32,199 bases of DNA, from positions 1 to 32,199 of the forward strand of contig CAYHQT010000001.1 of the NCBI GenBank assembly GCA_964358975.1. Direction: 5' to 3'. Below the pieces are notes generated by a model. It was given only the letters and a program-made list of their open reading frames with translations. It did not search any database and was not told the DNA's origin. Below are positions 8,921 through 30,474 of the stretch, piece after piece (within the stretch, counting starts at the first letter, position 1; the number at the start of each line of letters is the position of its first letter). Origin of the DNA: an uncultured Candidatus Saccharibacteria bacterium (GTDB taxonomy: Bacteria; Patescibacteriota; Minisyncoccia; Phycocordibacterales; PALSA-1337). The translations under genes and the position numbers were made by a program.

Positions 8921-8925
8921 TCAAT

Positions 8926-8971
8926 AAACTCTTTGGACTATGTGGTCATGGTGCGGAATTGGACGGTGTAG
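8926..8971 (+). repeat. Solo copy of a dockerin-gene 3' end (last ~46 nt plus stop); approximate left edge
   Basis: aactctttggactatgtggtcatggtgcggaattggacggtgtag closely matches 7380-7424 (a few mismatches), the end of the 5031-7424 gene. It begins ~5 nt after the abiEii stop and has no ORF body upstream. Confidence 0.9.
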
Positions 8972-9846: not shown

Positions 9847-9852
9847 TAATAA

Positions 9853-9912
9853 AGGGATGGCAGAGTGAACTCTCTCGACTATGTGGTGATGGTGCGGAAT
9901 TGGACGGTGTAA
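9853..9912 (+). repeat. Solo copy of a dockerin-gene 3' end (~60 nt, ends in TAA)
   Basis: gatggcagagtgaactctctcgactatgtggtgatggtgcggaattggacggtgtaa aligns to the ends of the dockerin ORFs (e.g. 4328-4387). It starts ~7 nt after the HEPN stop. Confidence 0.9.
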
Positions 9913-11217: not shown

Positions 11218-11267
11218 GAATCAACTCTCTAGACTATGTGGTCATGGTGCGGAATTGGACACTATAA
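11218..11267 (+). repeat. Solo copy of a dockerin-gene 3' end (~50 nt, diverged last codons, in-frame TAA)
   Basis: gaatcaactctctagactatgtggtcatggtgcggaattggacactataa. It starts ~9 nt after the preceding stop codon. Confidence 0.85.
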
Positions 11268-15385: not shown

Positions 15386-15611
15386 AGTATTGTCAGGGAT
15401 ACAAGTGACCAAAATTCTGGAGAATTACGGTTTTTCTGTTCATGCACAAAATGGAAGTCATATAAAGTTGAGAAGAACAACAATGGGCATAAGAGAGATT
15501 TTGATTGTTCCGAATCATAACCCTATTGCAAAAGGAACCTTGAAAGCAATTTTCACCCAAGCATCGCAATACATTTCAGAAACTGAATTGAGGAAACATT
15601 TTTATAATTGA
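15369..15611 (+). CDS. hicA: HicA-family mRNA interferase toxin
   Basis: MEVKLKVLSGIQVTKILENYGFSVHAQNGSHIKLRR...VPNHNPIAKGTLKAI matches the HicA dsRBD-like pattern. The start was set at internal ATG 15369; the track ORF starts at 15267 inside hicB. Confidence 0.75.
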   Translation: MEVKLKVLSGIQVTKILENYGFSVHAQNGSHIKLRRTTMGIREILIVPNHNPIAKGTLKAIFTQASQYISETELRKHFYN

Positions 15612-15616
15612 TTTTA

Positions 15617-15695
15617 ACTCCCTCGATGACGTGCACATCTACTCTCGCGCCCTGTCGGCCAACAAAGTGAAGCAGTTGTATAATCTGGGGAGATA
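15617..15695 (+). repeat. Solo 3' end of a LamG-repeat gene (encodes NSLDDVHIYSRALSANKVKQLYNLGR*)
   Basis: It aligns with the last codons of 30..626 (IDDVRVYNRALTGIEVKQLYNIGR*) and 15751..17907. It starts 6 nt after the hicA stop and has no ORF body upstream. Confidence 0.85.
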
Positions 15696-15703
15696 GGGGA
15701 GCC

Positions 15704-15724
15704 GAAAAAGGTCGGACCTTTTTC
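15704..15724 (+). terminator. A/T-rich palindrome (gaaaaaggtc g gacctttttc), possible bidirectional terminator
   Basis: Perfect 10-nt inverted arms, but the stem is weak. It lies between the solo fragment and the next promoter. Confidence 0.3.
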
Positions 15725-15750: not shown

Positions 15751-17907
15751 ATGCGCTCGAAGTTAGAATTTAGAATTTGGAATTTGGAATTTTGGGCAAA
15801 AATTCTATTTTTTGTTTTTATTATTCTATATTCCATATTCCATATTCCAAATTCCGTAAAAGCCTCCTTCGTCTCAAACTCTTCCTCCAATTTCACCAAC
15901 ACCTTGAAAACCGGCCTAGTCGGCTGGTGGACTTTTGACGGCGCCAATATGAAGAATAATGTGACCGACAGCAGTGGGCAGAATAACAATGGAAACATGG
16001 TCGGCTGGACTTCCACATCCAGCGCCATCGTGGCGGGCAAGCTGGGGCAGGGGTTGAGGTTTGATGGGGTGAATGATGTTGTAACGGGCCCAACCTACAA
16101 TGGCGTAAAAACAGTCTCATTCTGGCTAAAGCCCAATTCCACAACCCAGCAAATCTTAATGCTAGATGCCAATCTTGCTTCAACCAGCGTAAGTTCCGGA
16201 ACGATATCCGCCAACAATTTCACCAGTCCTACTATTTATGTAGACGGCGCTGTTTCTTCCACTATCTCAAATACCAATTGGCATTTCATTACCATTACAA
16301 CCGCGACAACCATCAACGCTTCCGCCATTAAAATAGGTCAAACCGGAACCGGGTATTATAAAGGTCTCCTCGACGACGTCCGCGTTTACAACCGAGTATT
16401 ATCCGCCAGCGAAGTTAAACAGCTCTACTCCATGGGCGCCGACACGAAAATGAACATTACGCCAACGGCTTGGCCAAGCCCGCTTAAGCAAGGACTGACT
16501 CTCTGGTGGACGCTGGACGGCGCCGACACGAAATGGAATACGCAAAAAGAGAATGATAAAAGCGGTACCGGCTCCGCGGGGTCGGTGGGAACGCTCGCGG
16601 GTTTTTCCACTTCAACCAGCGTGCTTCCGGGTAAAATGGGGCAGGCGCTCTCCTTTAACGGCGCCAGCAATGTTTATTCAACGAATGCCATATCCGCTTT
16701 TATGAGCAACGCGACGGGCACGATGTCTCTTTGGTTCTACCCAAAAAACGGCAACTCCGGTACCTGTTCGGACGGCAGTATGTCAGCTCTTATTTCCGAC
16801 TATGACGGCGTAAGCCTCGGCGGTTACGCTTGGCTCGGCTATGACGGCGCCAATCTTTGCGCCGGCGGCTATGACGGCGTCCTGCGCGTGATTTCTTCGG
16901 CTGTTTCAAAAAACAAGTGGACGCACGCAGTTTGGGTTCATAAGAACGGAGTGCTCACGCTCTGGAAAGACGGCGCTCTGGTCAGCGCGCAAACGCTCGG
17001 CAATATCTCCGATATTTCGCGCCCTATGTACCTCGGCCGCTCTTATCTCAACACTTATTTTAACGGATATTTGGATGATGTTCGCATGTACTCAACCGCC
17101 CTCTCCACTTCTACCATCCAGACACTCTACAATGCCGGCGCGAGCACGAAAGTTAATGTCTCTTTAAGTCCGCCGCAAAGTTTGGGACAAACGAACTTGA
17201 TGACGGGACTCGTCGGCTGGTGGACCTTCGACGGCAAGGACACCAACTGGGCCACCGGCGTGACGAACGATAAGTCTGGAAATAGTAACAACGGGCAACT
17301 TATCAATATGTCAACGAGCACGAGCGTGGTCCGGGGGAAGCTGGGGCAGGGGTTGAAGTTTGATGGAATTAGTGGCGCATCTTCCGGTACCTATGTGAAT
17401 GTAGGGTCACCTACAACATTGACAAACCTCTCTGCTTTAACAGTGTCGGTATGGGCGAAAACAAATGGTTACGGTGTATCTGGTCAGGGTGTTCTTGTCA
17501 GCAAAAAAAGCTGGTATGGCGCAGGTGACGGATGGCTTTTTAGCGTTAATAGCTCATATCACGACATTGATTTTTTCCGAAAATACGATGGAGGCACATC
17601 CTTGGATGTTCTCTCCACCGCTAATACTTTGACAACTAGCGATTTTGGCAAATGGATTCATTGGACTGTAACAACTGATGGCACTGCAAACGCTTCAGGT
17701 GTTCACATCTACAAGAATGGCGTGGATGTTACAGGTACAACCGTTACTAACGGAGTCGGAAACAGATACAGTGATGCGGCAATCAATCTTGAATTAGGTA
17801 ATGTATTATACAATCAGACTTTTAATGGTGTTCTCGACGATATTCGCGTATACAATCGGGTGTTGTCCGTTACCGAAATCAAACAACTCTATAATATGGG
17901 TAAATAA
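15751..17907 (+). CDS. Secreted protein of four tandem LamG domains (Sec-type signal peptide)
   Basis: 718 aa. Signal: KILFFVFIILYSIFHIPNSVKA|SF. There are four LamG units. Three open with GL[VT][GL]WWT[FL]DG (nt ~15916, 16492, 17206) and the second, internal unit lacks this opener. Each ends with LDD[VI]R[VM]Y..LS...[IV].[QT]LY. Confidence 0.9.
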   Translation: MRSKLEFRIWNLEFWAKILFFVFIILYSIFHIPNSVKASFVSNSSSNFTNTLKTGLVGWWTFDGANMKNNVTDSSGQNNNGNMVGWTSTSSAIVAGKLGQGLRFDGVNDVVTGPTYNGVKTVSFWLKPNSTTQQILMLDANLASTSVSSGTISANNFTSPTIYVDGAVSSTISNTNWHFITITTATTINASAIKIGQTGTGYYKGLLDDVRVYNRVLSASEVKQLYSMGADTKMNITPTAWPSPLKQGLTLWWTLDGADTKWNTQKENDKSGTGSAGSVGTLAGFSTSTSVLPGKMGQALSFNGASNVYSTNAISAFMSNATGTMSLWFYPKNGNSGTCSDGSMSALISDYDGVSLGGYAWLGYDGANLCAGGYDGVLRVISSAVSKNKWTHAVWVHKNGVLTLWKDGALVSAQTLGNISDISRPMYLGRSYLNTYFNGYLDDVRMYSTALSTSTIQTLYNAGASTKVNVSLSPPQSLGQTNLMTGLVGWWTFDGKDTNWATGVTNDKSGNSNNGQLINMSTSTSVVRGKLGQGLKFDGISGASSGTYVNVGSPTTLTNLSALTVSVWAKTNGYGVSGQGVLVSKKSWYGAGDGWLFSVNSSYHDIDFFRKYDGGTSLDVLSTANTLTTSDFGKWIHWTVTTDGTANASGVHIYKNGVDVTGTTVTNGVGNRYSDAAINLELGNVLYNQTFNGVLDDIRVYNRVLSVTEIKQLYNMGK

Positions 17908-17913
17908 AGTTAT

Positions 17914-20676
17914 ATGTTTTCATCTATCAAAATATTTATTAAGACTGAATACGGTATAGCTATTTTACTGTCCAGTTTTATTTTAGCTCTCACCCTCATC
18001 GGCCAGTCTTGGAATGATTTTGTTTTAGTTGCTGACCAAACAATCCAATCCATTCCTTCCTCCGCCAGCTGGCGGAATACCCAACTAGCTTCCGCTGAAG
18101 GCACTGATTTACTAACACAAGGGTTAGTTGGATGGTGGAAATTTGACGAGGGGAGCGGGACGACGGCGGGGGATGCGAGTGGCGGGGGGAATGTAGGGAT
18201 GTTTGTTAATGAACCGGCATGGGTTTCTATCACAAAGGCGAAAGTGGGGAATGGAGCGGTGCAGTTTAATGGTATTAACAATTACATATCAGTCGGAACC
18301 TTGGACTCATTTGGTGCCTCCAATGGTCAAACCCAAATGCAACAGGGCGTTACAATATCTCTTTGGCTAAAGACGACCAATAACTCAAGTATAATGACAT
18401 TGGTTGGTAACAGATCGCTCGGGCTCTCTCCAGGATTTGGTGTATCGTTGAATAGTGGTTTTTACGGAATGGTTCCCGGATCGATAAGAGTCAGTTGGTC
18501 GCAATCTTCTAATTACGGGTCATCATTCGCTTTTAACGCCAACAGATTGATAAACGACGGAAATTGGCATCTTCTAACCGTGGTAATCAAAATGCCCGGC
18601 ACACAGCAAATCTGGATTGATGGTACAAGCCGAAATGTTAGTATTGAACGTGATAGTTTTAGCACATACCAAACATGGTCTATCACTCCGTCGCTTGGAA
18701 TTGGCGCGGATATTATGAGTGCAACTACGGAGAACTATTTCTTGGGATTAATTGACGACGTCCGCGTTTACAACCGTGTCCTGTCAGCGGATGAAATAAG
18801 CCAACTCTATGCTCTTGGAGACAGCACTGTTGCTCCTGCCAATACCTCATCCCCATCAAGCCCTCTTTCTGTCACGACCGTGGCCGCAGCTCCAACCACT
18901 TACACTCTTACCGTTTCAAAGTCAGGAAGTGGCACAGGCGCTGTCACTGGCGGATCAATTTTCTGCGGTTCCACTTGTTCTCAATCCAGTATCACTTCAG
19001 GAACTTCAATCACCCTTTCCGCTACCCCAACATCAGGTTCGACCTTTACGGGTTGGAGCGGGGGAGGGTGTTCGGGAACTGATGTATGCCTGGTCACGCT
19101 TAACGCAGATACAAGCATACGGGCTACCTTTAGCACAGCATCAACACAGATTCCAGCCGGCGCTGACGTATATGTTGCGGCTAACGGCAATGATTCAACA
19201 TGCGCTAGAAACAATGTCACGAAGCCGTGCCTTACGCTTAGCAGAGCTTACACTGTATCTCAAGCGGGGGATGTCATAGAAATATCCGGTGGGACATATC
19301 CTGATCAGACCATACCGAAGCTATCCAAGGGAACCGCGATTGTAACATTCGAGCCGGCGTCTGGAGCGTCTGTAATTTTAGGAAGCGTTAATATTTATGC
19401 CAGTTATGTGGAATTGCGGAACATGGCGTCATCAGGAAGAATAGGGATAAATCCCGTAGCGACTGACTATCCATCAGGCACCAATCATATAACTCTGCGT
19501 AATATGAATGCTGAAAGCCTGGGCATCGTTGCTGAAGATGTTCTAGTTAAAGGCGGAAATTTCGGCGGATTTGACGCGTGTGACGCAAGCAAGCCTGAAG
19601 ATATTGTCCAAATTTGGGAAACGAGCAGGTCGGGGAATTGGTATGCTTCTTCAAGAGTTACAATTGATGGAGCGGTTATACATGATGTAACCGACCACAA
19701 CAATGCCTGTTCGGATGTGCCACCTCCAGCCCAAGGACGACATGTTGACTGCATGCAAATATTGTCCGGACATTTTATAACGGTCAGAAATTCTGTTTTC
19801 TATAATTGTGCAACGAGTGATATTATTGCCCGTCCGTTTCGTGTGGGATTAGATAATCTTTTGATTGAAAATAATTTTATGCAAGCAGTAATGAATCCTG
19901 GTTTAGCTTTAAATTTGGGAGACGGGTCGGATGTCTTTGGCGGCACAAATATTGTTAGATACAATACGATTTTTGGAGCGGCTGGAAGATGTTCTACTCC
20001 GGGCTGTCTTCAATTTTACGGTAATATCATAAATGCCGGTTACTGTCCGACTAATGTCAATGCGGTTTTTGATCATAATGTATTTATTTCTGGCTTGTCC
20101 AATCTCTCCAGTGCGTATCTGTGCGGTACCAATTTTAAACAAGGCAATCCTTCTTTCGTTGGACCCACGCCGAGTTCCTCATATTTAAACGGTATTATTC
20201 CGAATTATCATCTTGCGGCTAATGATGTGGTGGCGCTCGATTCCGGAGACCCGACGCGTTATCCGGCAACTGACATTGACGGTCAAACCCGTTTTTTTGG
20301 TTTAACTCCTGATGCTGGAGCAGATGAATACACAGGAAGTGGGGGAGTCACTCTCACAAACGGTCTCTGCTCCACCACTCTCAATCAGTGTACAACAGGA
20401 ACATTCTCCGACCTTGCCGACACCTCCGCTAACTACCTCTGGTCATGCATGGGTTCCAACGGCGGTACTACCGCTTCCTGTAGTTTGCCTATCACACCAG
20501 TTACCCCCCCCACTCCAACCACCGGCGACTTCAACGCTGACGGCATAGTCAACTCCATAGACCTCTCTCTCATGATTACCGCCTGGAATACGAGCAACGC
20601 TACTTACGACCTTAACAGAGACGGCAGAGTGAATTCTCTAGATTATGTGATTATGGTGCGGAATTGGAGTATGTAG
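17914..20676 (+). CDS. Giant surface protein: TM leader - LamG - B-repeat-like Cys domain - beta-helix - 4-Cys module - dockerin
   Basis: 920 aa. It starts 6 nt after the upstream stop, so it is probably co-transcribed. It carries the leader, the LamG signature, YTLTVSKSGSGTGAVTGGSIFCGSTC..FTGWSGGGCSGTDVC, NGLCSTTLNQC..YLWSC..ASCSLPI, and the dockerin. Confidence 0.9.
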   Translation: MFSSIKIFIKTEYGIAILLSSFILALTLIGQSWNDFVLVADQTIQSIPSSASWRNTQLASAEGTDLLTQGLVGWWKFDEGSGTTAGDASGGGNVGMFVNEPAWVSITKAKVGNGAVQFNGINNYISVGTLDSFGASNGQTQMQQGVTISLWLKTTNNSSIMTLVGNRSLGLSPGFGVSLNSGFYGMVPGSIRVSWSQSSNYGSSFAFNANRLINDGNWHLLTVVIKMPGTQQIWIDGTSRNVSIERDSFSTYQTWSITPSLGIGADIMSATTENYFLGLIDDVRVYNRVLSADEISQLYALGDSTVAPANTSSPSSPLSVTTVAAAPTTYTLTVSKSGSGTGAVTGGSIFCGSTCSQSSITSGTSITLSATPTSGSTFTGWSGGGCSGTDVCLVTLNADTSIRATFSTASTQIPAGADVYVAANGNDSTCARNNVTKPCLTLSRAYTVSQAGDVIEISGGTYPDQTIPKLSKGTAIVTFEPASGASVILGSVNIYASYVELRNMASSGRIGINPVATDYPSGTNHITLRNMNAESLGIVAEDVLVKGGNFGGFDACDASKPEDIVQIWETSRSGNWYASSRVTIDGAVIHDVTDHNNACSDVPPPAQGRHVDCMQILSGHFITVRNSVFYNCATSDIIARPFRVGLDNLLIENNFMQAVMNPGLALNLGDGSDVFGGTNIVRYNTIFGAAGRCSTPGCLQFYGNIINAGYCPTNVNAVFDHNVFISGLSNLSSAYLCGTNFKQGNPSFVGPTPSSSYLNGIIPNYHLAANDVVALDSGDPTRYPATDIDGQTRFFGLTPDAGADEYTGSGGVTLTNGLCSTTLNQCTTGTFSDLADTSANYLWSCMGSNGGTTASCSLPITPVTPPTPTTGDFNADGIVNSIDLSLMITAWNTSNATYDLNRDGRVNSLDYVIMVRNWSM

Positions 20677-20684
20677 GGTACAAA

Positions 20685-20695
20685 TGTGCTATAAT
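20685..20695 (+). promoter_or_regulatory. Extended -10 box TGTGCTATAAT, 6 nt upstream of ATG 20702 (leaderless)
   Basis: TATAAT 20690-20695 begins 14 nt after the dockerin-gene stop (20674-20676), followed by gctggc and ATG. Confidence 0.6.
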
Positions 20696-20701
20696 GCTGG
20701 C

Positions 20702-21130
20702 ATGGAAGGTAAAAGATTAACAGATGAACAAAGACAAGAGATCATCTCTCTAATGCAATCACGAGGGGCTATTGTCGGCTATCTATTCGGCTCATATGCC
20801 CGTGGCACAGCAGGACCTTTGAGTGATATTGATGTTGGTGTGGCTTTTCCGGAGACAATACCGAAGAATACCCAAGACACGCTCATCGAAGAGATCCGCA
20901 CTGGTTTGGAAAGAAAATTTGGAGGTAGAGACAAAGCTGATGTTTTGAATGTACCAGAACTTAAAAATCCATTACTCCGATACATTGTCACTTTGGGAGA
21001 AGGTCAAATACTATTTTCGGATGATCAATCTCTTCATAATAGATTGGCTAATTACGCTCTGCGTGAATATGAGGACACGAGGTCACTTCGATCAATTCAA
21101 AGTAAAGCTCTAGAGCATTTATTCGCGTAA
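20702..21130 (+). CDS. mntA: MNT-type nucleotidyltransferase antitoxin
   Basis: LFGSYARGTAGPLSDIDVGVAF. The start was set at ATG 20702; the track start 20684 lies inside the promoter box. Confidence 0.85.
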   Translation: MEGKRLTDEQRQEIISLMQSRGAIVGYLFGSYARGTAGPLSDIDVGVAFPETIPKNTQDTLIEEIRTGLERKFGGRDKADVLNVPELKNPLLRYIVTLGEGQILFSDDQSLHNRLANYALREYEDTRSLRSIQSKALEHLFA

Positions 21131-21140
21131 CTATATTTTC

Positions 21141-21435
21141 ATGACAACACTCAATATTGAATCAATAGAAGATAAATTATTTCGACGCTCATATTCTGGC
21201 TGAAGAATTTCATGAAAATCCCAAGAATTACGCGGAAATTATTACCGCGCTTGGAGAGCATGGCGTTATAGACAAAGAATTCGCGATCACCCAAGAAGAG
21301 ATGGCTAAATTTAGAAATAAGCTGATTCATGATTATGATTCAATTGATCGGTCTAAAACTGTTTTTTATGGCCGATCTGCTCCGGAAGTTTTCCGAACAT
21401 TTGGCAAGGCATTTACGGAGTATATAAAGAAATAA
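21141..21435 (+). pseudogene. Degraded HEPN (DUF86-like) toxin gene: internal deletion plus frameshift
   Basis: ATG 21141 gives only 20 codons (MTTLNIESIEDKLFRRSYSG*). The +1 frame then encodes ..AEEFHENPKNYAEIITALGEHGVIDKEFA...FRNKLIHDYDSID..EYIKK* (R-x4-H present) and ends at 21435. Roughly 45 residues of a normal DUF86 N-terminal half are missing. Confidence 0.75.
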
Positions 21436-21438
21436 AAA

Positions 21439-21531
21439 TGGAATACGAGCAACACTATTTACGACCTTAATAGAGATGGTATCGTTAATTCTCTGGATTA
21501 TGTGATGATGGTAAGGAATTGGAGTATGTAA
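21439..21531 (+). repeat. Solo copy of a dockerin-gene 3' end (93 nt; encodes WNTSNTIYDLNRDGIVNSLDYVMMVRNWSM*)
   Basis: It aligns to 20584-20676 and 15013-15105. It begins 3 nt after the HEPN-remnant stop and has no ORF body upstream. Confidence 0.9.
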
Positions 21532-21694
21532 TGAAGTCTCCCGGATATTGAAAGCTTTTGCTCTGCCGACGGGGGTGAGAGGGTGATGGAAAAATGGGAA
21601 ATTGGGAGATCATAAATTCTGGGACTAGACTCGAATATTGTACACTAGAGTAGCAATAATTGACCATATTTTGTTAGTATGCTAGGCTAAAAAC

Positions 21695-22834
21695 ATGTAT
21701 ATACCAAGGTTTCCGAAAATCGAAGACAAAATAGGAATTGGAAAGGTTCTAGTTATTTATGGTGCAAGACAAGTAGGTAAGTCATTTTTGGTCAAGAAAT
21801 ATCTGGAAAAGGTTTCTAGAGAAACTCCAACTCTGAAACAATTATTTTTCAATGGAGAAGATGTCAATGTTCAAGCTATTTTTTCTTCAATGAATTTGAA
21901 AACACTTGATGAAGCGGTTGGGGATGCTGAACTCATGGTGTTGGATGAAGCACAAGTCATAAGAAATGTCGGGATCTCACTCAAATTACTTGTTGACACG
22001 AAACCGAGGTTGAAAATTATTGTTACAGGGTCTTCCTCGTTTGAACTTTCCGGCCAGATAGGAGAACCATTGGTCGGAAGAATGAATGTTATCAATCTTC
22101 TGCCTTTATGGGAAAGAGAAATAAAGGAAGGGGGACTTATGGATTATGTCACAGGACTTGATTTTGCGTTGCGCTTCGGACGTTATCCGGAGGTATTTCT
22201 GGAATCGGTCATTGAAAGGAAGAAAGAGATTGTTACGAATATCGTCAATGGTTATCTTTTGAAAGATATCTTGGCATTCGAGCAGGTGAAAAATTCAAAG
22301 TTAATTCTTGATCTATTGAAACTTCTGGCTTATCAAGTCGGAAATGAAGTTTCCGTAAATGAAATAGCCAATAATCTTTCTATCGGTAGAAATATAGTCA
22401 ATAGATATTTGGATTTACTTGAACAAAATTTTATTATTTTTCCACTCCATCCCTTTGCTAAAAATCTGAGGAATGAAATACGTAAAAAAGAGAAATATTA
22501 CTTTTATGATTTGGGTATCAGGAATGCTCTGATTGAGAATTTCGATGCGATCGATACTAGAGGTGATATCGGGGCACTCTGGGAGAATTATTTGATTGTA
22601 GAAAGACGCAAGCGCAATGCCTATACTGACCCTTACAAATCCGTCTATTTTTGGCGCAAATTATCTGGAGCAGAAGTAGATTTTGTCGAAGTATATAGCG
22701 ACCATATCGATGGTTATGAGTTTTCGTTGAAGGAAAAGGCTGGTAATAAATCGAAAAGATCTTGGTTGGAGAACTATAACAACGCTACATGGATAAATAT
22801 TCATAAAGAGAATTACAAAGATTTTATTTCCTAA
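21695..22834 (+). CDS. AAA+ ATPase (AAA_14 / DUF4143-type ATP-binding protein)
   Basis: 379 aa. Walker A: IYGARQVGKS. Walker B: LMVLDEAQ. The C-terminal region is typical of DUF4143 proteins. A possible TGcTAGGCT box lies 6 nt before the ATG. Confidence 0.75.
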   Translation: MYIPRFPKIEDKIGIGKVLVIYGARQVGKSFLVKKYLEKVSRETPTLKQLFFNGEDVNVQAIFSSMNLKTLDEAVGDAELMVLDEAQVIRNVGISLKLLVDTKPRLKIIVTGSSSFELSGQIGEPLVGRMNVINLLPLWEREIKEGGLMDYVTGLDFALRFGRYPEVFLESVIERKKEIVTNIVNGYLLKDILAFEQVKNSKLILDLLKLLAYQVGNEVSVNEIANNLSIGRNIVNRYLDLLEQNFIIFPLHPFAKNLRNEIRKKEKYYFYDLGIRNALIENFDAIDTRGDIGALWENYLIVERRKRNAYTDPYKSVYFWRKLSGAEVDFVEVYSDHIDGYEFSLKEKAGNKSKRSWLENYNNATWINIHKENYKDFIS

Positions 22835-22848
22835 CGGTAGATAGTAAT

Positions 22849-22957
22849 TCTAATGACCACCGCCTGGAACACGAACAACGCTACTTATGACCTTAACAGA
22901 GACGGCAGAGTGAACTCTCTGGACTATGCCATCATGGTGCGGAATTGGACGGTGTAG
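22849..22957 (+). repeat. Solo copy of a dockerin-gene 3' end (109 nt; encodes LMTTAWNTNNATYDLNRDGRVNSLDYAIMVRNWTV*)
   Basis: It aligns to 4279-4387 and 20568-20676. It begins ~14 nt after the ATPase stop. Confidence 0.9.
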
Positions 22958-23047
22958 GGGAAAACTACCTATCTCGAGCACCTTATTTTAGAGAAAGGAG
23001 ATAAAGTCTTCCGATAGTTATCAACTTGAATTTCTCATAATAGTCAG

Positions 23048-23091
23048 TATAATGTACGTATTGAGCGAAAAAGCTTAAAAACGCTCAATAC
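23048..23091 (+). promoter_or_regulatory. TATAAT box followed by a perfect 10-bp inverted repeat in the 5' leader of the ATPase gene
   Basis: TATAAT 23048-23053. gtattgagcg (23058-23067) and cgctcaatac (23082-23091) are separated by 14 nt and end 3 nt before ATG 23095. Confidence 0.45.
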
Positions 23092-23094
23092 ATC

Positions 23095-24354
23095 ATGATA
23101 AATGAACAAAAAACCAATATTTTACGAGAAATTGTCTCGAAACAGAGAGAAAATCTCAAAGTAAAGCTTTCTCGTGAATATATTCCTCGAGAAGTTTTGA
23201 AAAAGGCAGAAGAGCTATTCAAGTCCAATCTGATAAAAGTTATTACGGGTCCGCGAAGAGCTGGGAAGTCTGTGCTAGCTTTATTGTTGCTAAAGGGTAA
23301 AGATTTCGCCTATTTAGATCTCGATGATGAATATTTGAAAGAAATCGTCAAAGGATTGGGACATTATGAAATACTTATGGATGTTTTGAAAGTGATTTAC
23401 GGGGATACAAAAAATATATTTATTGATGAAATACAGAATCTACCACGATGGGAACTTTTCGCCAACAGACTGCATAGTCAGGGATACAATCTTTTACTTA
23501 CTGGATCAAACTCGAATCTTTTGAGCAGAGAACTTTCCACGCATTTGACCGGAAGGCATTATGTTATCGAAATTATGCCTTTTAGCTTTGGTGAGTTTAC
23601 CTTGAATGGAATCAGAAATAACGCTACGCAAAATCTCAAAGATTATATGGAGAATGGAGGGTACCCGGAAATAGTCACGGGTAGTGATAAGCCGGAATCA
23701 TATTTAACGGTACTTTTCAATTCCATAATATATAAAGACATAATTAGTAGATATAAAGTAAGACATGCGGATGAATTGAATCTCGTCTCTGAATATCTAC
23801 TGAATAATTATAGCAAGGAAATAAGTTTCAAAAAGATCTCCGCCTTGCTCGGTATTGTGAGTCCCAATACTATAAAAAGTTATCTAGGACATCTAGAGGA
23901 GTCGTACCTGTTCTTTATTCTGAACAGATTTTTATTGAAGATCGGCGAGAGGATGAAAGCTCCGAAGAAAGTTTATTTGGTAGATAATGGTTATATAAAA
24001 GCCAAATCAATGCAGATTTCTCCCGATCATGGAAAACTTTTGGAAAATATGTTTTTCATGGAATTGGTCAAGAAAGGTTTTGTTCCAAATAAAGAGATTT
24101 TCTATTATAAGACGAGAAATCAGAAGGAGATAGACTTTGTCGTCGTGAAAAATCTAGAAAAGAAACTATTCCAAGTTTCGTATGATATTTCTGATATTGA
24201 TGTCAGGAAAAGAGAGGTTAAAGCACTGATTGAGGCGGGTCAAGATTTAGTTACCGATGAATTATATATTATAACTTTCGATAGAGAAGAAATTATTGAA
24301 CAAAGTGGAAAGAGAATAAAAGTTATTCCATTTGGCAAATGGGCTTTGGAATAA
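23095..24354 (+). CDS. AAA+ ATPase (AAA_14 / DUF4143-type ATP-binding protein)
   Basis: 419 aa. Walker A: ITGPRRAGKS. Walker B: IFIDEIQ. Distant paralog of 21695..22834. Confidence 0.75.
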   Translation: MINEQKTNILREIVSKQRENLKVKLSREYIPREVLKKAEELFKSNLIKVITGPRRAGKSVLALLLLKGKDFAYLDLDDEYLKEIVKGLGHYEILMDVLKVIYGDTKNIFIDEIQNLPRWELFANRLHSQGYNLLLTGSNSNLLSRELSTHLTGRHYVIEIMPFSFGEFTLNGIRNNATQNLKDYMENGGYPEIVTGSDKPESYLTVLFNSIIYKDIISRYKVRHADELNLVSEYLLNNYSKEISFKKISALLGIVSPNTIKSYLGHLEESYLFFILNRFLLKIGERMKAPKKVYLVDNGYIKAKSMQISPDHGKLLENMFFMELVKKGFVPNKEIFYYKTRNQKEIDFVVVKNLEKKLFQVSYDISDIDVRKREVKALIEAGQDLVTDELYIITFDREEIIEQSGKRIKVIPFGKWALE

Positions 24355-24376
24355 TTAAAGAAAAGTCATATTTATC

Positions 24377-24450
24377 ATGCCACTATCTATCCAAACATCA
24401 AATAAGGCATTCCTCAATTCATTAATCGCCGATCAAACAATCCATTCCTT
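24377..24450 (+). repeat. Degraded remnant of the leader-type gene 5' end (TM-coding part deleted)
   Basis: atgccactatctatccaaaca...atcgccgatcaaacaatccattcc parallels 27871-27891 (atgtccccatctatccaaaca) joined directly to the ADQTIQSIP-coding segment (28010-28040). Confidence 0.65.
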
Positions 24451-24537
24451 TATAGGTGCGAAATTGAATGGTGTATGGCCATGTCCATCTTGAGGTATTT
24501 CTTTACGATTACTACAAAATATGTAAAAATAGTAAAT

Positions 24538-24636
24538 ATGTCAGAAAAGCCTATGTTTATAAGGAGAAAAATCGATGCTAAAATACAGGAGTATTTGAAA
24601 TTACCTGAAATACTGGCAATTTTAGGTTCGTGGTAA
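24538..24636 (+). pseudogene. Possible N-terminal fragment of a third AAA_14-type ATPase gene (32 codons)
   Basis: MSEKPMFIRRKIDAKIQEYLKLPEILAILGSW* resembles the pre-Walker-A N-terminus of this ATPase family and stops where G.R..GKS would follow. Weak, motif-level call only. Confidence 0.3.
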
Positions 24637-24689
24637 GCTAACGGTTTTATAGACACGTATTTATGGTTGCATCGGATTTTCAGGTCATA

Positions 24690-24695
24690 TATAAT
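24690..24695 (+). promoter_or_regulatory. TATAAT box 6 nt upstream of ATG 24702 (leaderless)
   Basis: TATAAT, acaaat, then ATG. Confidence 0.5.
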
Positions 24696-24701
24696 ACAAA
24701 T

Positions 24702-24899
24702 ATGGTTACAATAACAATTCCAAAGAAATTATCGAAGCTCGGTGAACTAGTGCTTATCTCCAAGAGAGAGTTGGAAGCTCTTATTGCCCGCGTTAGTGAA
24801 GTTGTGGAAGAAAAAGATGTATTGCGTTGGTCTAGGGAAGCTAGGGCAATGAAGCGCGCGGGAAAACTTCCATTGCTCGGAAATATGGCGACGCTATGA
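24702..24899 (+). CDS. Putative antitoxin of the RelE/ParE-like toxin (family unassigned; VTITIPKKL is reminiscent of SpoVT/AbrB-type)
   Basis: 65 aa with a 4-nt ATGA overlap onto the downstream toxin. The start was chosen at 24702 because the TATAAT box lies inside the longer track ORF (24663). Confidence 0.55.
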   Translation: MVTITIPKKLSKLGELVLISKRELEALIARVSEVVEEKDVLRWSREARAMKRAGKLPLLGNMATL

Positions 24900-25162: not shown

Positions 25163-25168
25163 CGAGCG

Positions 25169-25200
25169 GTGTCGTGACTGCCGATAGGCAGACATGACAC
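25169..25200. other. Strong GC-rich hairpin flanked by direct gcgagcg repeats
   Basis: gtgtcgtgactgcc-gata-ggcagacatgacac forms 12 WC pairs and 1 GU out of 14 positions. gcgagcg occurs at 25162-25168 and again at 25201-25207. No T-run follows. Confidence 0.4.
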
Positions 25201-25357: not shown

Positions 25358-25364
25358 GCGATTT

Positions 25365-26011: not shown

Positions 26012-26034
26012 ACAATGTAGGTAAATAGAATTGT

Positions 26035-26289
26035 ATGTTCTCATCCCTAAAAACACCCCTAAAACCCGAACACGGTATCGCCCTCTTACTGTCCTGTTTC
26101 ATCCTCTCTCTCACCCTCATCAGTCAAAGCTGGAATGATTTCATATTAGTCGCCGACCAAACCATCCAATCCATTCCTTCCTCCGCCAACTGGCGGAATA
26201 CCCAACTTGCTTCGGCCGAAGGCGCTGATACATTAATTGCCCTCTCCCTAATGATCACCGTATGGAACCATAGCAACACCATAGGTTGA
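26035..26289 (+). pseudogene. Leader-dockerin minigene: family 5' leader fused directly to an internal dockerin fragment
   Basis: The 84-aa ORF has aa 1-66 equal to the family leader (MFSSLKTPLKPEHGIALLLSCFILSLTLISQSW..ADQTIQSIPSSANWRNTQLASAEGADT). It then continues LIALSLMITVWNHSNTIG*, which corresponds to dockerin SIDLSLMITAWNTSNTI. LamG, beta-helix and the dockerin 3' half are all missing. Confidence 0.8.
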
Positions 26290-26293
26290 AATA

Positions 26294-27817: not shown

Positions 27818-27870
27818 GGATGAATACATCATAGCAAGGTGATAAATAAGTGTCAAGCGTCATTATCCAC

Positions 27871-30474
27871 ATGTCCCCATCTATCCAAACATTCATAAAG
27901 ACTTTAGCTAAAACACCTCTCAAACCCGAACACGGCCTCGCCCTCTTACTGTCCTGTTTCATTCTCGCTATCACCCTCATCAGTCAAAGCTGGAATGACT
28001 TCGTCTTAGTCGCCGACCAAACAATCCAATCAATTCCTTCCTCCGCCAGCTGGCGGAATACTCAACTAGCCCAAGTCGGTGGTCCCTCGTCGCAAAGCTC
28101 CTCGGGACAATTAGCCCAAGGGCTAATTGGCTGGTGGAAGTTTGATGAGGGAAGCGGGACGACTGCGGGGGATGCGAGCGGAAATGGGAATAACGGGACG
28201 CTGGTGAATGGGCCGGCGTGGACGACAGATAGTAAGGTGGGAGGTGGGGCGGTAAGTTTTGATGGTACGAACAATTATATTAATGTTAGTTCAGCTCCAT
28301 CTCTGGAGAGTTTAGGACCACTTACATATTCTGCGTGGATATATCCAATCAGTTGGGGTCAGGGTAGTCAGGGGTATTTATTTTCAAAATCTACAGGTTT
28401 ACGTTTTCAGTTGCTTAGCACATATAGCCAGATAAGATTTTATGTAGATTATTCAACGGCTAATCTCGCAGTTGGCTCTGCAGTAGGTTCCATTTCATTG
28501 AATAATTGGGTGCACGTTGTTGTAACATGGGATGGATCATCCTCAGCTTCAAACACGCATATTTATCTTAACGGGGTTGAAACAACAAACTATCAAATAA
28601 GGCAAAATGGCGACGGGACTAGGTCTCCAATAGTGACAAGGCCTTTTATTATTGGCGCAAGTGATCCTATCTACGGATCAGGTAGATTTTTCAGTGGAAA
28701 AATGGACGATGTTCGTGTTTATAATCGCATTTTATCAACAGGTGAAATTATGGACTTATATAATTTCACTTATGTTTCTACTGCCAGTCCAGTTCAAGAA
28801 CCAATCATCGTTCAAGCCCCGTCGATTCAAACTTCACCAACCCAGCTTCAACCCCCTTCTGTAACTCTTGCAGTTGGTGTTTACAGGGTTAACCAAGATG
28901 GTACTGGTGATTTCAAGACGGTTCAAACTTGTGTGGACGCGGTCGCGCCTAATTCAACATGCCTCGTTTACCCAGGTAACTATAAAGAATTGGTTACTAT
29001 TACCAAATCTGGGAGCATACAAAGCCCAACAATAATTAAAGGTCTAAACAAGCCGAACATATCTTTTCCAGATGGATCCAATGCGTACTTAAATAATCAA
29101 GATCAAACTTCAAAGGTTAAAGGGTTTGTTGTAAAAGCAGATAATATTAAAATAATTAACTTTGAATTCACGGATATCACCACAAAACAGCAAGGAGCCA
29201 TATATTTAGACAATCGCAGTAATATAGATATTGAAGATAATTATTTCCATGAATTGAATCCCCCAAGGATAGTCAATAATAATTGCCTATGGTGTGGTTG
29301 GGGTTCAGTACGGGGTGTTGGTTATAATATTAAATTTATTGGTAATACAGTATGGCGTGTTGAAGGTGTGGGTATAGCAATTACAGGCAATAATTGGCTA
29401 GTGGAAAATAATAATGTTTCTCATGGTAATATTTTTGCTTGGAATTATGCGGAAAAAGCTTTAAGGGATGGTCTTAACGGATCGATGTGGGACCAGAATT
29501 ATATAGTAGTAGGTGATACTGATGCTCTTAGGTTTTTTGGCAATGGACATATTATAAAAAATAATTATTTTCATGATTATTTGCTCGGGGAGACGGCTTG
29601 GGCTGAAAGAAAAACTGTGCAGAATCCAAATCCTTCTCCACACATGGACTGTATGCAAACATTTTCAAATGGAGATCCTCCATGGCAGGGTGCGACCAAT
29701 GTAATCATTGAGGGAAATTTTTGTTTTAATATTGGTACCCAATTTATCTTTATCTCTGATATAAACAATAAGAGCGATCATATCACGATTGTTAATAATA
29801 TATTCAAAAAAAATGGCGCGCACGGCATAGCGGTAAGTGGAATAGAATATCTTACACTCGCGAACAATATAATTGCCAATGTCAGTTATGCGGCCATTAG
29901 TGTTGGTAATTCCCCCAATTCAAAAATTATCAATAATATTATTTACTATGATTATTCTTCAGATGGTGTTTTTCGCATAGATCCTGTAATTGATGAAGTT
30001 TCTAAGGTTGGACTGACTTTAGATTATAATTTACATTTTCCAAATACGAGAGTTACTTTTCCGGGAGTGTATGATACGAATGGAATTTTTGGAAAAGATC
30101 CTAAGTTTATAGATCCAAACGGAAATAACTTTCACATTCAGAATAGTTCTGTTGCGATTGATTCAGGATCGGATATGAGCTCATATTTATCAAATGACAA
30201 AGACGGCATCTCCCGCCCCCAAGGCTCCGCCTGGGACATCGGCGCCTATGAATATGTCGGTTCTGGTGGAGTTGTCACGCCTCCAATTATTTCATCAACT
30301 CCTCCTCCCGCCATCATCATCGGCGACTTTAACAAAAACGGCATAGTCAATTCTATAGACCTTTCTCTAATGGTCACCGCATGGAATACGAACAACACCA
30401 CTTACGACCTTAATAGGGATGGCATAGTGAACTCTCTCGACTATGTGATCATGGTGCGGAATTGGACGATCTAG
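27871..30474 (+). CDS. Giant surface protein: TM leader - LamG - beta-helix - dockerin
   Basis: Start set at ATG 27871 (MSPSIQTFIK..), supported by the parallel remnant at 24377; the track used GTG 27850. It has the leader, the LamG signature, NN[IW]-rich beta-helix repeats, SRPQGSAWDIGAYEY and the dockerin (DFNKNGIVNSID / DLNRDGIVNSLD). Confidence 0.9.
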   Translation: MSPSIQTFIKTLAKTPLKPEHGLALLLSCFILAITLISQSWNDFVLVADQTIQSIPSSASWRNTQLAQVGGPSSQSSSGQLAQGLIGWWKFDEGSGTTAGDASGNGNNGTLVNGPAWTTDSKVGGGAVSFDGTNNYINVSSAPSLESLGPLTYSAWIYPISWGQGSQGYLFSKSTGLRFQLLSTYSQIRFYVDYSTANLAVGSAVGSISLNNWVHVVVTWDGSSSASNTHIYLNGVETTNYQIRQNGDGTRSPIVTRPFIIGASDPIYGSGRFFSGKMDDVRVYNRILSTGEIMDLYNFTYVSTASPVQEPIIVQAPSIQTSPTQLQPPSVTLAVGVYRVNQDGTGDFKTVQTCVDAVAPNSTCLVYPGNYKELVTITKSGSIQSPTIIKGLNKPNISFPDGSNAYLNNQDQTSKVKGFVVKADNIKIINFEFTDITTKQQGAIYLDNRSNIDIEDNYFHELNPPRIVNNNCLWCGWGSVRGVGYNIKFIGNTVWRVEGVGIAITGNNWLVENNNVSHGNIFAWNYAEKALRDGLNGSMWDQNYIVVGDTDALRFFGNGHIIKNNYFHDYLLGETAWAERKTVQNPNPSPHMDCMQTFSNGDPPWQGATNVIIEGNFCFNIGTQFIFISDINNKSDHITIVNNIFKKNGAHGIAVSGIEYLTLANNIIANVSYAAISVGNSPNSKIINNIIYYDYSSDGVFRIDPVIDEVSKVGLTLDYNLHFPNTRVTFPGVYDTNGIFGKDPKFIDPNGNNFHIQNSSVAIDSGSDMSSYLSNDKDGISRPQGSAWDIGAYEYVGSGGVVTPPIISSTPPPAIIIGDFNKNGIVNSIDLSLMVTAWNTNNTTYDLNRDGIVNSLDYVIMVRNWTI

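Follow-up and report, generated by a model that had tools for sequence, protein, structure and literature searches.

Why should the last codons of a surface-protein gene, stop codon included, lie by themselves between TA and defence genes? The question is raised by the window analyzed here, a 32,199-nt stretch of DNA from an uncultured Candidatus Saccharibacteria bacterium. It carries five genes of a LamG/dockerin family (genes A to E, with stop codons at 4387, 7424, 15105, 20676, and 30474), of which gene B is split and frameshifted. A degenerate 28-mer for DYVxMVRNW detected 10 dockerin ends on the forward strand, 5 on genes and 5 orphans (0.00 expected from dinucleotide shuffles), and a repeat finder recovered the same 10 copies in its families D2 and D4. 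These searches, together with an nhmmer profile built from the final 210 nt of genes A to E, establish that the two solo dockerin ends that a first-pass annotation had proposed for the second array are real (s4 and s5, Table 1).

Table 1. Features of array 2 and related debris elsewhere in the window
Feature	Coordinates	Strand	Evidence
Stub s1 (array 1), ~50 nt, after AbiEi/AbiEii	8922..8971	+	nhmmer profile 161-210
Stub s2 (array 1), ~61-66 nt, after MNT/HEPN 9018-9846	9852..9912	+	nhmmer profile 150-209
Stub s3 (array 1), ~50 nt	11218..11267	+	nhmmer profile 161-208
3' stub of LamG-only gene (DFNSLDDVHIYSRALSANKVKQLYNLGR, then stop)	15610..15696	+	blastx of spacers, E 6e-10
Gene D, full-length surface protein (Laminin_G_3, InlB B-repeat, dockerin type I)	17914..20676	+	Pfam PF13385 1.5e-18, PF00404 7e-11, PF18998 6e-8
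Extended -10-like element TGTGCTATAATGC, putative promoter of the MNT cassette	20685..20697	+	8 nt past gene D stop
MNT-type nucleotidyltransferase, antitoxin-like	20702..21130 (ORF open from 20684)	+	PF18765 7.6e-11, PF01909 7e-10; PADLOC PDC-S09
HepT/HEPN toxin pseudogene, stop at ~21203 plus frameshift	21143..21435	+	translation with stops
Stub s4, orphan last 93 nt of dockerin gene (WNTSNTIYDLNRDGIVNSLDYVMMVRNWSM, then stop)	21439..21531	+	nhmmer 21439-21530, profile 118-209, E 1e-25
ATPase-1 cassette upstream region, with TTGACC-17-TATGCT at 21660-21688	21590..21694	+	conserved before ATPase-1 homologues in unrelated genomes L030, L032, L034, L036
ATPase 1 (AAA_14 + DUF4143), candidate single-gene defence protein	21695..22834	+	PF13173 1.5e-24, PF13635 7.5e-36; PADLOC PDC-S01 1e-126
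Stub s5, orphan last ~110-116 nt of dockerin gene (LMTTAWNTNNATYDLNRDGRVNSLDYAIMVRNWTV, then stop)	22842..22957	+	nhmmer 22849-22957, profile 102-210, E 7e-34
Promoter-like site TTGAAT-16-TATAAT before ATPase 2, entirely 3' of s5	23026..23053	+	consensus scan (matches overall no more frequent than in shuffles)
ATPase 2 (AAA_14 + DUF4143)	23095..24354	+	PF13173 1e-30, PF13635 2e-23; PDC-S01 3e-101
Probable eroded 5' stub 5a of LamG-dockerin gene	24377..24451	+	two colinear pieces (start codon + 7 codons; LIADQTIQ); weak, below nhmmer threshold
23-nt remnant, 3' end of LamG-only (LamG3x) gene	26012..26034	+	directly after HEPN stop 26011
Mini-gene 5b, paralogue 5' start fused to middle piece of dockerin (…SLMITVWNHSNTI)	26035..26289	+	nhmmer and translation
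Gene E, next intact LamG-dockerin paralogue, closing array 2	27850..30474	+	PF13385 1.7e-28, PF00404 5.6e-9

The stubs are mosaics of gene ends

The dockerin end of gene D was located by nhmmer at 20469-20676, and its last ~170 nt served as the reference for array 2. Stub s4 starts 3 nt past the HEPN stop and s5 8 to 14 nt past the stop of ATPase 1, with homology perhaps beginning, by eye, at ~22842. Translation in the dockerin frame showed that both retain an intact second Ca-binding repeat and an in-frame stop codon, as originally described. The annotation had also argued that they are not local duplications of the end of gene D, and this was borne out: s4 differs at 12/93 positions from gene C and at 13/93 from gene D, and s5 at 11/93 from gene A and 12/93 from gene D. 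Even in an enlarged set, the nearest full gene end was still 10-13% from either stub (11/106 for s5). Both stubs are mosaics of variants from different paralogues; of the two end motifs quoted earlier and found again here, GTAAGGAATTGGAGTATGTAA combines one C-like and one D-like variant, while GTGCGGAATTGGACGGTGTAG is identical to gene B.

Gene ends and stubs are mutually 80-90% alike, with a 17-mer core at the right end that is identical in 7 of the 10 copies, a likeness that makes them substrates for homologous recombination and gene conversion. Among full gene ends, 61% of informative site pairs were incompatible (PHI-like p = 0.04). Nucleotides unseen in 17 full gene ends occurred in the stubs 3, 6, and 16 times at codon positions 1, 2, and 3, as compared with 8, 2, and 19 for the full genes in a leave-one-out count; s4 carried no novel changes at first and second codon positions. 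These patterns suggest that the stubs were functional, or were converted, until recently. Relaxation is also indicated, with W-to-stop changes in two stubs and V-to-A, I-to-T, and R-to-H changes at invariant positions; s5 has two substitutions (I to T and V to A) at positions invariant in 18 full genes.

Cassettes between the stubs carry putative promoters of their own

Pfam searches supported the cassette identities assigned previously, namely an MNT gene with a gutted HEPN gene, followed by two AAA_14+DUF4143 ATPases. The MNT protein is 99.3% identical at the amino acid level in the related contig L019, and the putative promoter 13-mer TGTGCTATAATGC also precedes two other MNT cassettes, at 11301 and 25347. 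The C-terminal part of the HepT/HEPN pseudogene (21202-21432) matches PF01934 at 1.1e-12 over profile positions 55-101 only, and the gene is also broken in L001 and L019. Stubs s4 and s5 are followed by spacers of 137-163 nt that hold the predicted promoters of the ATPases, so that the stubs are not retained as promoter parts.

Elsewhere in Patescibacteria, the ATPase cassettes are solitary genes, complete from promoter to stop codon, and their flanks are not duplicated. Homologues of ATPase 1 (82-90% identical) occur in this form in many contigs, and those of ATPase 2 (79%) in housekeeping contexts. In L030, L034, and L035, the ATPase-1 homologue adjoins a DGR reverse transcriptase. In L036, a homologue (90% amino acid identity) is immediately followed by a full-length LamG-family gene, an intact arrangement such as would be expected before deletion. 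A full-length paralogue between HEPN and ATPase 1, or between ATPase 1 and ATPase 2, was not found in any genome examined.

Other paralogue debris in the same arrays

The arrays also hold features that the first-pass annotation had missed: 5' stubs, a mini-gene consisting of a start plus a middle piece, and 3' stubs of a non-dockerin family. These point to the decay of whole paralogues. By eye, the first piece of the probable 5' stub 5a (24377-24398) agrees with the beginning of gene E at 19/22 positions, and the second (24422-24451) belongs to repeat family D17 and aligns locally to gene starts. Mini-gene 5b matches an nhmmer profile of gene starts (positions 1-180) at 26035-26226 (E 6e-42) and the ends profile (positions 69-137) at 26214-26282, and is cut off by the next cassette. 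Such middle-only dockerin pieces were found both here and at 2950-2987 of L019. The LamG-only stub at 15610-15696 shares bases with the HicA stop codon and has a hairpin (15704-15724) and an intact LamG3x gene downstream, and the 23-nt remnant is identical at 17/23 positions to 17891-17913, the end of the LamG3x gene preceding gene D. As both LamG-only 3' stubs abut TA cassettes, the occurrence of such stubs is not confined to the dockerin sequence. In total, the window contains seven 3' stubs and two 5' stubs, an imbalance that is not significant (p ~0.18).

Stub edges and cassette order vary between related contigs

All strain comparisons are based on short-read metagenome assemblies, in which mosaic contigs such as L001 may be assembler products. 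Positions 20361-27175 were reproduced at 97.4-99.98% identity in independent assemblies from four samples (L001-L004), indicating that the arrangement is not an assembly artefact of this contig; s3 was reproduced in L013. Related groundwater contigs, probably from Saccharibacteria, yielded at least 16 distinct orphan ends. Among 16 distinct stubs, the right edge was always the stop codon, while the left edge ranged from profile position 30 to 166, so that the stubs were 45-180 nt long, with the shortest all at ~45-50 nt. The sequence after the stub stop often shares GG(G)TA. The gap between the stop of the upstream cassette and the start of the stub was 0-20 nt in nearly all cases, with a median of ~6.

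In all three informative comparisons (3/3), the same cassette was followed by stubs with different left edges. The edge after the broken HEPN lies at 118 in the window and at about 41-58 in L019, and that after AbiEii at 161 in the window and at 30 in L023, where the stub after this AbiEii end is at least 174 nt long and is truncated by the contig edge. For HEPN_9421, the edges (~146 in the window, 62 in L019) are exactly one internal dockerin repeat (81 nt) apart, as expected from homologous recombination between the two Ca-binding repeats; in the L019 counterpart of s2, this HEPN stop adjoins the corresponding position in dockerin repeat 1. Stub lengths vary between related contigs on a timescale of 2-10% cassette divergence. 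The annotation had suggested that the fragments were imported with their cassettes or exchanged by gene conversion. These comparisons do not support the implied integron-like principle, under which a fragment would be part of its cassette and move along with it.

Cassettes are also reshuffled between haplotypes, in keeping with the polymorphism among related genomes that had been anticipated. The MNT-HEPN(broken) cassette is followed in the window by s4 and an ATPase, and in L019 (99% amino acid identity) by a different, longer stub and the MNT/HEPN cassette of the window's array 1. The two versions are 100% identical over 20753-21262, ~5% diverged at the cassette edges, and 11-30% diverged in the upstream gene, with non-homologous sequence downstream.

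Candidate explanations for the orphan ends

We consider it somewhat more probable than an even chance that the stubs are eroding remnants of paralogues in a hotspot for TA and defence cassettes, shuffled and homogenized via the repeated gene ends. The gaps within a tandem family of LamG/dockerin surface-protein genes would form a landing zone for self-contained TA and candidate defence cassettes, each arriving complete from promoter to stop codon. Stubs s4 and s5 would then be all that is left of sister genes that lost their starts and bodies to deletion or replacement, with the conserved gene end still attached to the cassette formerly 3' of the lost gene. Gene ends and stubs alike could undergo gene conversion and ordinary homologous recombination, both from paralogue to paralogue and among strains that occur together. 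Cassettes would thereby be shuffled between arrays, and the stubs would continue to resemble live gene ends even as small deletions wear them down. The residue would consist of addictive TA modules, which are hard to delete, and neither a dedicated recombinase nor an attachment site would be involved. Within this scheme, we infer a separate full-length paralogue as the ancestor of each stub, RecA-type recombination as the shuffling process, and TA addiction as the cause of retention. The decay series in the same arrays (split gene B, the mini-gene, the eroded 5' stub, and the middle-only pieces) supports the remnant reading. So do the LamG-only stubs, the variable left and fixed right edges, the different stubs behind one cassette, the codon-position and site-incompatibility patterns, the exchange of cassettes between contexts, the ATPase-1 homologue beside a LamG-family gene in L036, and the lack of integrase or transposase hits. 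Several points run against it: random deletions do not obviously predict gaps of only 0-20 nt between stop and stub; s4 and s5 persist in a compact genome though they are not promoter parts; no genome examined has a full-length paralogue between these particular cassettes; the excess of 3' over 5' stubs, though not significant, points to a directional process; and the strain comparisons depend on short-read assemblies. An alternative is insertion with displacement, in which an incoming dockerin end plus cassette pushes the old end of the resident gene downstream as a stub. The left join would be homologous with the resident dockerin end and the right join illegitimate within the same end, through homology-facilitated illegitimate recombination or through break repair with an ectopic paralogue as template, and arrays would extend outwards from the gene, like C-terminal displacement in Rhs/CdiA loci. 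This would explain why every cassette has a complete dockerin stop on its left and a variable-start stub on its right, why one cassette end is joined to different dockerin positions across contigs, why 3' stubs are commoner, and why 5' debris is absent between a cassette and the following stub. We nevertheless regard it as unlikely. Divergence between the window and L019 remains high up to the stop and for ~75 nt beyond, upstream of the common MNT cassette (mismatches at 20652, 20669-71, 20681, 20698, 20733, and 20752), and so there is no common donor-derived dockerin tract of the kind that a left homologous anchor would leave. Displacement also leaves the 5' stubs, mini-gene, and middle-only pieces unaccounted for, and at other sites the ATPase cassettes occur with no duplication of the adjacent gene ends.

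The layout of gene end, cassette, repeat, cassette, repeat is formally that of a site-specific system (integron-, CALIN-, or CIME-like), in which the last ~45-50 nt of the dockerin coding sequence would be the attachment site and a recombinase encoded elsewhere would capture and stack cassettes at the dockerin end. The strongly conserved right end, the recurrent GG(G)TA, the uniform minimum stub length, and a cargo of TA and defence genes as in chromosomal integrons all fit. Even so, this explanation appears improbable. No integrase or transposase was found in the 30 window ORFs by Pfam scan; the ORFs of 17 related contigs (~80 kb) were compared by BLAST with the window proteins, and a Pfam scan of the 10 unmatched ORFs likewise gave no hit. 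Neither inverted repeats nor single-strand hairpins were detected in the stubs (z-scores 0 to +1.9), the stub boundary varies for one and the same cassette, stubs from another gene family play the same role, and the cassettes bring predicted promoters of their own and are widespread without such repeats. More improbable still is that the stubs are kept for a function, whether as promoter part of the next cassette, as terminator or 3' UTR of the preceding one, or for RNA pairing with dockerin-gene transcripts. Their persistence in a compact genome, the retention of the 3'-most part, and a -10-like box 8-33 nt past the stop in some cassettes would be consistent with this, but the promoter-like sites lie 70-130 nt downstream of s4 and s5, the stubs gave no hairpin, terminator, or Rfam match, and their lengths differ between related contigs as if eroding. 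Lastly, an orphan copy of a gene's 3' end is a DGR hallmark, and reverse transcriptases lie beside some ATPase-1 homologues, which could make the orphan a template and the gene end its variable region. We give this practically no credence: the window lacks a reverse transcriptase or Avd, the repeat encodes a conserved dockerin instead of a variable ligand-binding tip, and the mismatch spectrum refutes it, with only 2/15 mismatches at A in the stub for s5 versus gene D and 4/13 for s4 versus gene D.

Comparison with known systems

Like defence and TA islands at recombination hotspots, the window carries clustered, strain-variable, self-contained cargo (MNT/HEPN, AbiE, HicAB, NYN, and PDC-S01 ATPases) without mobility genes, and exchange appears to use homology in conserved flanks. 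Here, however, the flanks are a single tandem paralogue family with pieces interleaved with the cargo, so that the homology arms are repeated inside the island. Integron arrays and CALINs share the alternation of ORFs with short, variable-length repeats best conserved at the right, as well as compact cassettes, many of them TA. In contrast, the arrays described here have neither integrase nor hairpin-forming imperfect inverted repeat; their repeat is a protein-coding gene end and not a fixed property of the preceding cassette, and their cassettes have predicted promoters of their own.

In tandem accretion at 3' ends (tRNA-gene islands, CIMEs at fda, SGI1 at trmE), the direct repeats likewise reproduce the 3' end of the target gene through to its terminus, with an intact gene on one side of the array. 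There, the position at which the integrase crosses over fixes the repeat length, and the integrase gene is carried by at least one of the elements, whereas the stubs here span a continuous range of lengths (45-180 nt) and the searches revealed no integrase. The orphan toxin-immunity modules of rhs and cdiA loci also follow a full gene as cassettes each preceded by a short conserved piece, and homologous recombination between the pieces can reshuffle or delete them. In those loci, in-frame fusion of the conserved piece to a new toxin tip alters the protein. In the window, by contrast, the piece is the extreme 3' end of the gene, stop codon included, its neighbouring cassettes are unrelated operons, and the surface protein is left unaltered.

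Gene content of the window

Every gene of the window lies on the + strand. Five large genes, A to E, encode a Laminin_G_3 domain and a terminal type I dockerin according to Pfam, and several of them are preceded by a LamG-only gene, such as that at 15751-17907. The gaps between A to E are occupied by small operons, among which Pfam and PADLOC identified AbiEi/AbiEii, four MNT/HepT pairs, one HTH/DUF6036 pair, HicA with a partner, a weak RelE/HigB-like pair, two NYN genes, and two AAA_14+DUF4143 ATPases. PADLOC assigned ATPases 1 and 2 to the candidate defence family PDC-S01 (1e-126 and 3e-101, respectively), and DUF4143 is listed in the PD-(D/E)XK superfamily (PMC3424549). As a dense cluster of toxin-antitoxin (TA) and defence genes (MNT/HepT, AbiEi/AbiEii, HicA, NYN, PDC-S01) with strain-variable content, the locus is a TA/defence island.

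Array 2, which runs from gene D to gene E, begins with a degraded MNT-HEPN (MntA-HepT) pair: MNT is intact, but in the HEPN, where a complete pair would have an intact RNase with the Rx4-6H motif, the frame is broken and matches its profile only at positions 55-101 of 120 (20702-21435). An identical 13-mer, TGTGCTATAATGC, resembling an extended -10 box, stands before three MNT/HEPN cassettes with otherwise diverged proteins (11301-11313, 20685-20697, and 25347-25359). It is possibly a further recombination substrate or a shared regulatory element; from its first position, the true start of the MNT gene listed from 11255 should lie after 11313.

Surface-protein genes, array-2 cassettes and gene debris in the window
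Feature	Position	Strand	Description
Gene A	665-4387	+	Laminin_G_3 + dockerin end
Gene B	5114-6529 and 6663-7424 (split)	+	Laminin_G_3 + dockerin end
Gene C	12205-15105	+	Laminin_G_3 + dockerin end
LamG-only 3' stub	15610-15696		87 nt; overlaps HicA stop codon
Terminator-like hairpin	15704-15724		after LamG-only stub, before intact LamG-only gene
Gene D	17914-20676	+	Laminin_G_3 + dockerin end
MNT-HEPN (broken)	20702-21435	+	cassette
Orphan s4	21439-21530		dockerin end
ATPase 1	21695-22834	+	cassette
Orphan s5	22849-22957		dockerin end
ATPase 2	23095-24354	+	cassette
Eroded 5' stub	24377-24451		weaker case
LamG-only 3' remnant	26012-26034		23 nt; after HEPN stop
Mini-gene	26035-26289		84-codon ORF: paralogue N-terminal signal/anchor region + dockerin middle piece; then cut by next cassette
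Gene E	27850-30474	+	Laminin_G_3 + dockerin end

Orphan dockerin ends follow the cassettes

With a degenerate 28-mer that describes the dockerin end, the window gave 10 matches, against 0.00 expected, and a repeat finder returned the same ten copies: the five gene ends and five orphans, that is, gene ends without a gene body. The two orphans of array 2, s4 and s5, were located with a profile built from the terminal 210 nt of genes A to E. The first-pass annotation had described solo dockerin ends here, each with a complete second Ca-binding repeat and an in-frame stop codon, set around cassettes that include a gutted HEPN, and all of this holds. Both orphans keep the frame, the second repeat and the stop codon; they encode repeat 2 and part of the linker only, with no upstream ORF. 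The full-length genes carry the PF00404 domain; s4 and s5 do not amount to a type I dockerin domain, which has two F-hand repeats in a secreted protein. The stretch 20361-27175 was reproduced by contigs from four other samples at 97.4-99.98% identity.

The gap between the stop codon of a cassette and the stub that follows is 0-20 nt in almost every case, and s4 and s5 have been retained although the ATPase promoters sit another 70-130 nt downstream. That position speaks against the stubs being kept as promoters, as does a consensus promoter scan without enrichment (32 sites versus 24.5±5.4). A reading frame shared by cassette ORF and stub was found for 4 of the 5 stubs in the window and, across all loci, for about 8 of the 15, where 5 would be expected; it was treated as chance. 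In the in-frame window stubs s1, s2, s4, and s5, only stop codons stand between the frame of the cassette ORF and the stub, which is probably chance as well. Orphan s4 is poor in C, with 10 among its 93 bases versus 27 among 109 for s5. In roughly half of the mismatches between s4 and the gene ends, s4 has T in place of a C of the gene, nearly always at a third codon position. Early AT drift, or descent from a more AT-rich donor, may account for this.

Ancestry of the orphans

Neither s4 nor s5 is a local duplicate of the adjacent gene end. Orphan s4 differs from gene C at 12 of 93 positions and from gene D, its neighbor, at 13 of 93; for s5 the counts are 11 of 93 against gene A and 12 of 93 against gene D. 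The nearest among 17 full-length ends of related contigs still differ at 12/90 positions (s4) and 11/106 (s5), and the degenerate motif found no parent end for either in GTDB genomes and metagenomes (4+20 loci), the nearest being ~10% away. Each orphan combines variants from different paralogues. Among the full gene ends, 61% of informative site pairs are incompatible (PHI-like p 0.04), so the dockerin-end family is mosaic throughout.

To judge by their substitutions, the orphans look like recently live sequence. Among 16 distinct orphans, the first, second, and third codon positions hold 3, 6, and 16 nucleotides, respectively, that no full gene has; a leave-one-out comparison of the full genes gave 8, 2, and 19. 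Relaxation is mild: a W-to-stop change in two orphans, and V to A, I to T, and R to H at otherwise invariant positions.

Cassette order and stub boundaries differ among related strains

The degenerate end motif yielded 4+20 loci in a scan of GTDB genomes and metagenomes, nearly all from the same Hainich groundwater samples; three of the related contigs belong to two MAGs labelled Candidatus Saccharibacteria. It is through such MAG contigs, rather than through markers of its own, that the window is assigned to Saccharibacteria. The loci contain many further orphans. All of these run to the stop codon on the right, often with GG(G)TA next, and start on the left at any profile position between 30 and 166, which gives lengths of 45-180 nt (16 stubs).

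Cassette order in contigs L019, L016, and L028 is unlike that of the window. L019 begins with a gene (X) and the broken MNT-HEPN cassette (99% amino acid identity to that of array 2), followed by a stub, an MNT/HEPN cassette (96-97% to the array-1 cassette at 9018-9846), a middle-only dockerin piece, another AbiE pair, a stub, and a gene. L028 runs ATPase, stub, ATPase, stub, AbiE-like cassette (93% amino acid identity to 26309-27179), stub, AbiE; in L020, a full-length gene is followed by a cassette of the 9018 type.

Over 20753-21262, the window and L019 share the broken MNT-HEPN cassette at 100% identity; its edges are ~5% diverged. Upstream, the two genes differ by 11% in the dockerin and by ~30% further up; downstream, the sequences are unrelated. 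The stub after the broken HEPN starts at profile position 118 in the window and at ~41-58 in L019, and the two differ at ~24% of aligned positions (by eye). Likewise, the stub after AbiEii starts at 161 in the window and at 30 in L023, and the stub after HEPN_9421, the HEPN of the 9018-9846 cassette, at ~146 in the window and 62 in L019. At this last junction (9846-9912 versus L019 2947-2987), L019 enters at CTTTAAC… of repeat 1 and the window at the equivalent …TAATA… of repeat 2, in both cases behind the same HEPN stop codon. The 81-nt offset is exactly one dockerin repeat, as recombination between two Ca-binding repeats would give, and the pair looks like the product of such an event within one dockerin.

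The first-pass annotation had rejected simple copying of the adjacent gene end, rightly given the distances to gene D, and had called for a comparison of related genomes, which are indeed polymorphic. Of its two suggestions for the fragments, import with their cassettes or exchange by gene conversion, the first is not supported: all three informative cassettes carry stubs with different starts in different contigs. A tie to the downstream cassette was considered instead, as the L019 and L016 stubs both start at ~87-88 before a cassette of the MNT_9018 type, and those of L018 and L025 at 129 and 132. The alignments gave no convincing shared sequence to the left of these stubs, the agreement may be coincidence, and the idea was dropped.

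Co-occurring strains, assembled from short-read metagenomes, supplied all of these comparisons. Junctions outside the repeated core, such as that of the broken HEPN with different stub starts, are robust; for linkage across the conserved core, chimeric assembly is possible in principle. Within 20300-23160, contig L001 equals L019 up to ~21315 and the window from ~21345. Either a crossover in nature has joined the two inside the broken HEPN, or the assembler merged sequences of two co-occurring strains. Contigs L002 and L003 begin at 21208-21209, beside this shared block, and L004 at 21630.

Several related contigs also encode cohesin + peptidoglycan-binding and cohesin + dockerin proteins adjoining LamG-dockerin genes (L024 1-771; L025 904-1959 and 2009-3034; L018 6701-8311). 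The combination suggests that these small-genome bacteria use a cohesin-dockerin system for surface display.

Other debris, and ATPases outside the arrays

Gene B is an apparent pseudogene (5031-7424): its conserved start, ATG 5031, is out of frame with the 5114 ORF, and a second break between 6529 and 6663 recurs in L015 at 99.9% identity. The mini-gene, whose ORF is also in L002 and L003, looks like a paralogue that has been almost wholly deleted. The layout of a cassette stop followed by a gene-end stub is not specific to dockerins, as the LamG-only family shows the same.

Homologues of ATPase 1 (82-90% amino acid identity) and ATPase 2 (79%) occur as solitary genes in many unrelated Patescibacteria contexts, including between pgk and a HIT gene, after ribosomal protein S1, and beside reverse transcriptases of diversity-generating retroelements (DGRs). 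The block conserved with ATPase 1 extends from ~110 nt upstream through the stop codon and includes TTGACC-17-TATGCT (21660-21688). A cassette mechanism that inherently duplicates the 3' end of its neighbor was rejected: in L030, L032, and L034, no neighboring gene ends are duplicated, the only repeats around the ATPase-1 homologues being those internal to LamG and the VR/TR pair of a DGR. The remaining homologues of either ATPase that were looked at are single genes in housekeeping contexts. The cassettes thus do not require dockerin ends. In L036, a full-length LamG-family gene has its start codon overlapped by a 90% homologue of ATPase 1. An intact arrangement of this kind could be the precursor of an ATPase with a 3' stub behind it.

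As a separate observation, ATPase-1 homologues (86-87% amino acid identity) from other Patescibacteria genomes adjoin DGR genes in two of seven distinct contexts examined (L030 3874-7140, L034 3943-7140, L035 129-2618), the neighbors being RVT_1 and bAvd, with a VR/TR pair in L034.

Origin of the arrays

We lean, without firm commitment, towards a cassette hotspot in a tandem paralogue family, with the stubs as the surviving ends of decaying paralogues. The tandem surface genes would form a hotspot in which TA/defence cassettes, each complete from promoter to stop, settle; dispensable paralogues would then decay, and their conserved ends would last longest and stay recognizable. Repeated ends and repeated cassettes would offer many substrates for homologous recombination and gene conversion, giving rise to the mosaics and the reshuffling. 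The short gap between cassette stop and stub may reflect no more than genome-wide compaction and the trimming of sequence back to its functional limits, yet its near-zero length keeps more exotic readings alive. A rival account is displacement, in which an incoming cassette is anchored by homology in the dockerin and joined illegitimately at its right end. This accounts better for the directional look and the zero-gap junctions; it is unlikely, as it leaves the 5' and middle debris unaccounted for and is contradicted at the one testable place, where no shared donor tract by the stop codon lies upstream of the shared MNT cassette. The zero-gap junctions would also be the footprint expected if the last ~45-50 nt of the dockerin coding sequence were a genuine recombination site, at which an unlinked recombinase, or RecA given targeted breaks and very short homology, captured, stacked, and swapped TA/defence cassettes. 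We regard this as improbable, and a true site-specific system as slightly more so; against the latter, stub left edges vary, and Pfam detected no integrase or transposase in 30 window ORFs.

Patescibacteria have tiny genomes with few recognizable mobile elements, yet many TA and defence genes, and are known for DNA uptake; in Saccharibacteria, genetic work has made use of natural transformation (PMC10633639). Under the hotspot account, the locus suggests a simple acquisition route: a tandem surface-gene family supplies repeated homology, self-contained cassettes settle between paralogues, and the stubs of decayed paralogues still act as portable homology arms for exchange among co-occurring strains. 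If so, integron-like arrays can arise without dedicated machinery, which calls for caution in annotation, and the locus provides a testable model of defence-gene flow in organisms that take up DNA.

Comparison with known systems

No description of this architecture was found in the literature. Rfam gave no match at the gathering threshold in the window, which also lacks tRNA and tmRNA genes. For the related loci, 17 contigs (~80 kb) were BLAST-matched to the window proteins and the 10 unmatched ORFs scanned with Pfam, again without an integrase or transposase.

Diversity-generating retroelements have a reverse transcriptase nearby and mismatches at template adenines; the window has no RVT_1, and where stubs differ from gene ends the changes are not specific to adenines, so the stubs are not DGR templates. 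Rhs and CdiA systems fuse a conserved fragment in frame to a toxin domain, followed by an immunity gene, whereas every stub here closes with the family's own stop codon and is followed by a separate cassette with a promoter-like upstream region. Accretion of integrative elements at a gene 3' end leaves direct repeats of that end, as here, but with a fixed repeat length, one crossover core and, in at least one element, a recombinase gene; here, left edges range from 30 to 166 among 16 stubs, and no recombinase gene was found.

The arrays also invite comparison with the integron. There, an IntI tyrosine recombinase adjoins the array; the ORFs scanned from the window and related loci yielded none, although an unlinked gene may lie elsewhere in the genome. 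An attC is an imperfect inverted repeat that forms a single-strand hairpin. The stubs have no inverted repeats, and single-stranded folding of s4, s5, and the gene D end gave z-scores of -0.2 to +1.9 against shuffles on both strands. An integron cassette carries its own constant attC at its 3' end, whereas the same cassette here is followed by stubs of different left edge. Should the gene end, improbable as we hold it, be a recombination site after all, the arrays would be an integrase-less, coding-sequence-based analogue of the integron in Patescibacteria, and a new kind of cassette-capture system.
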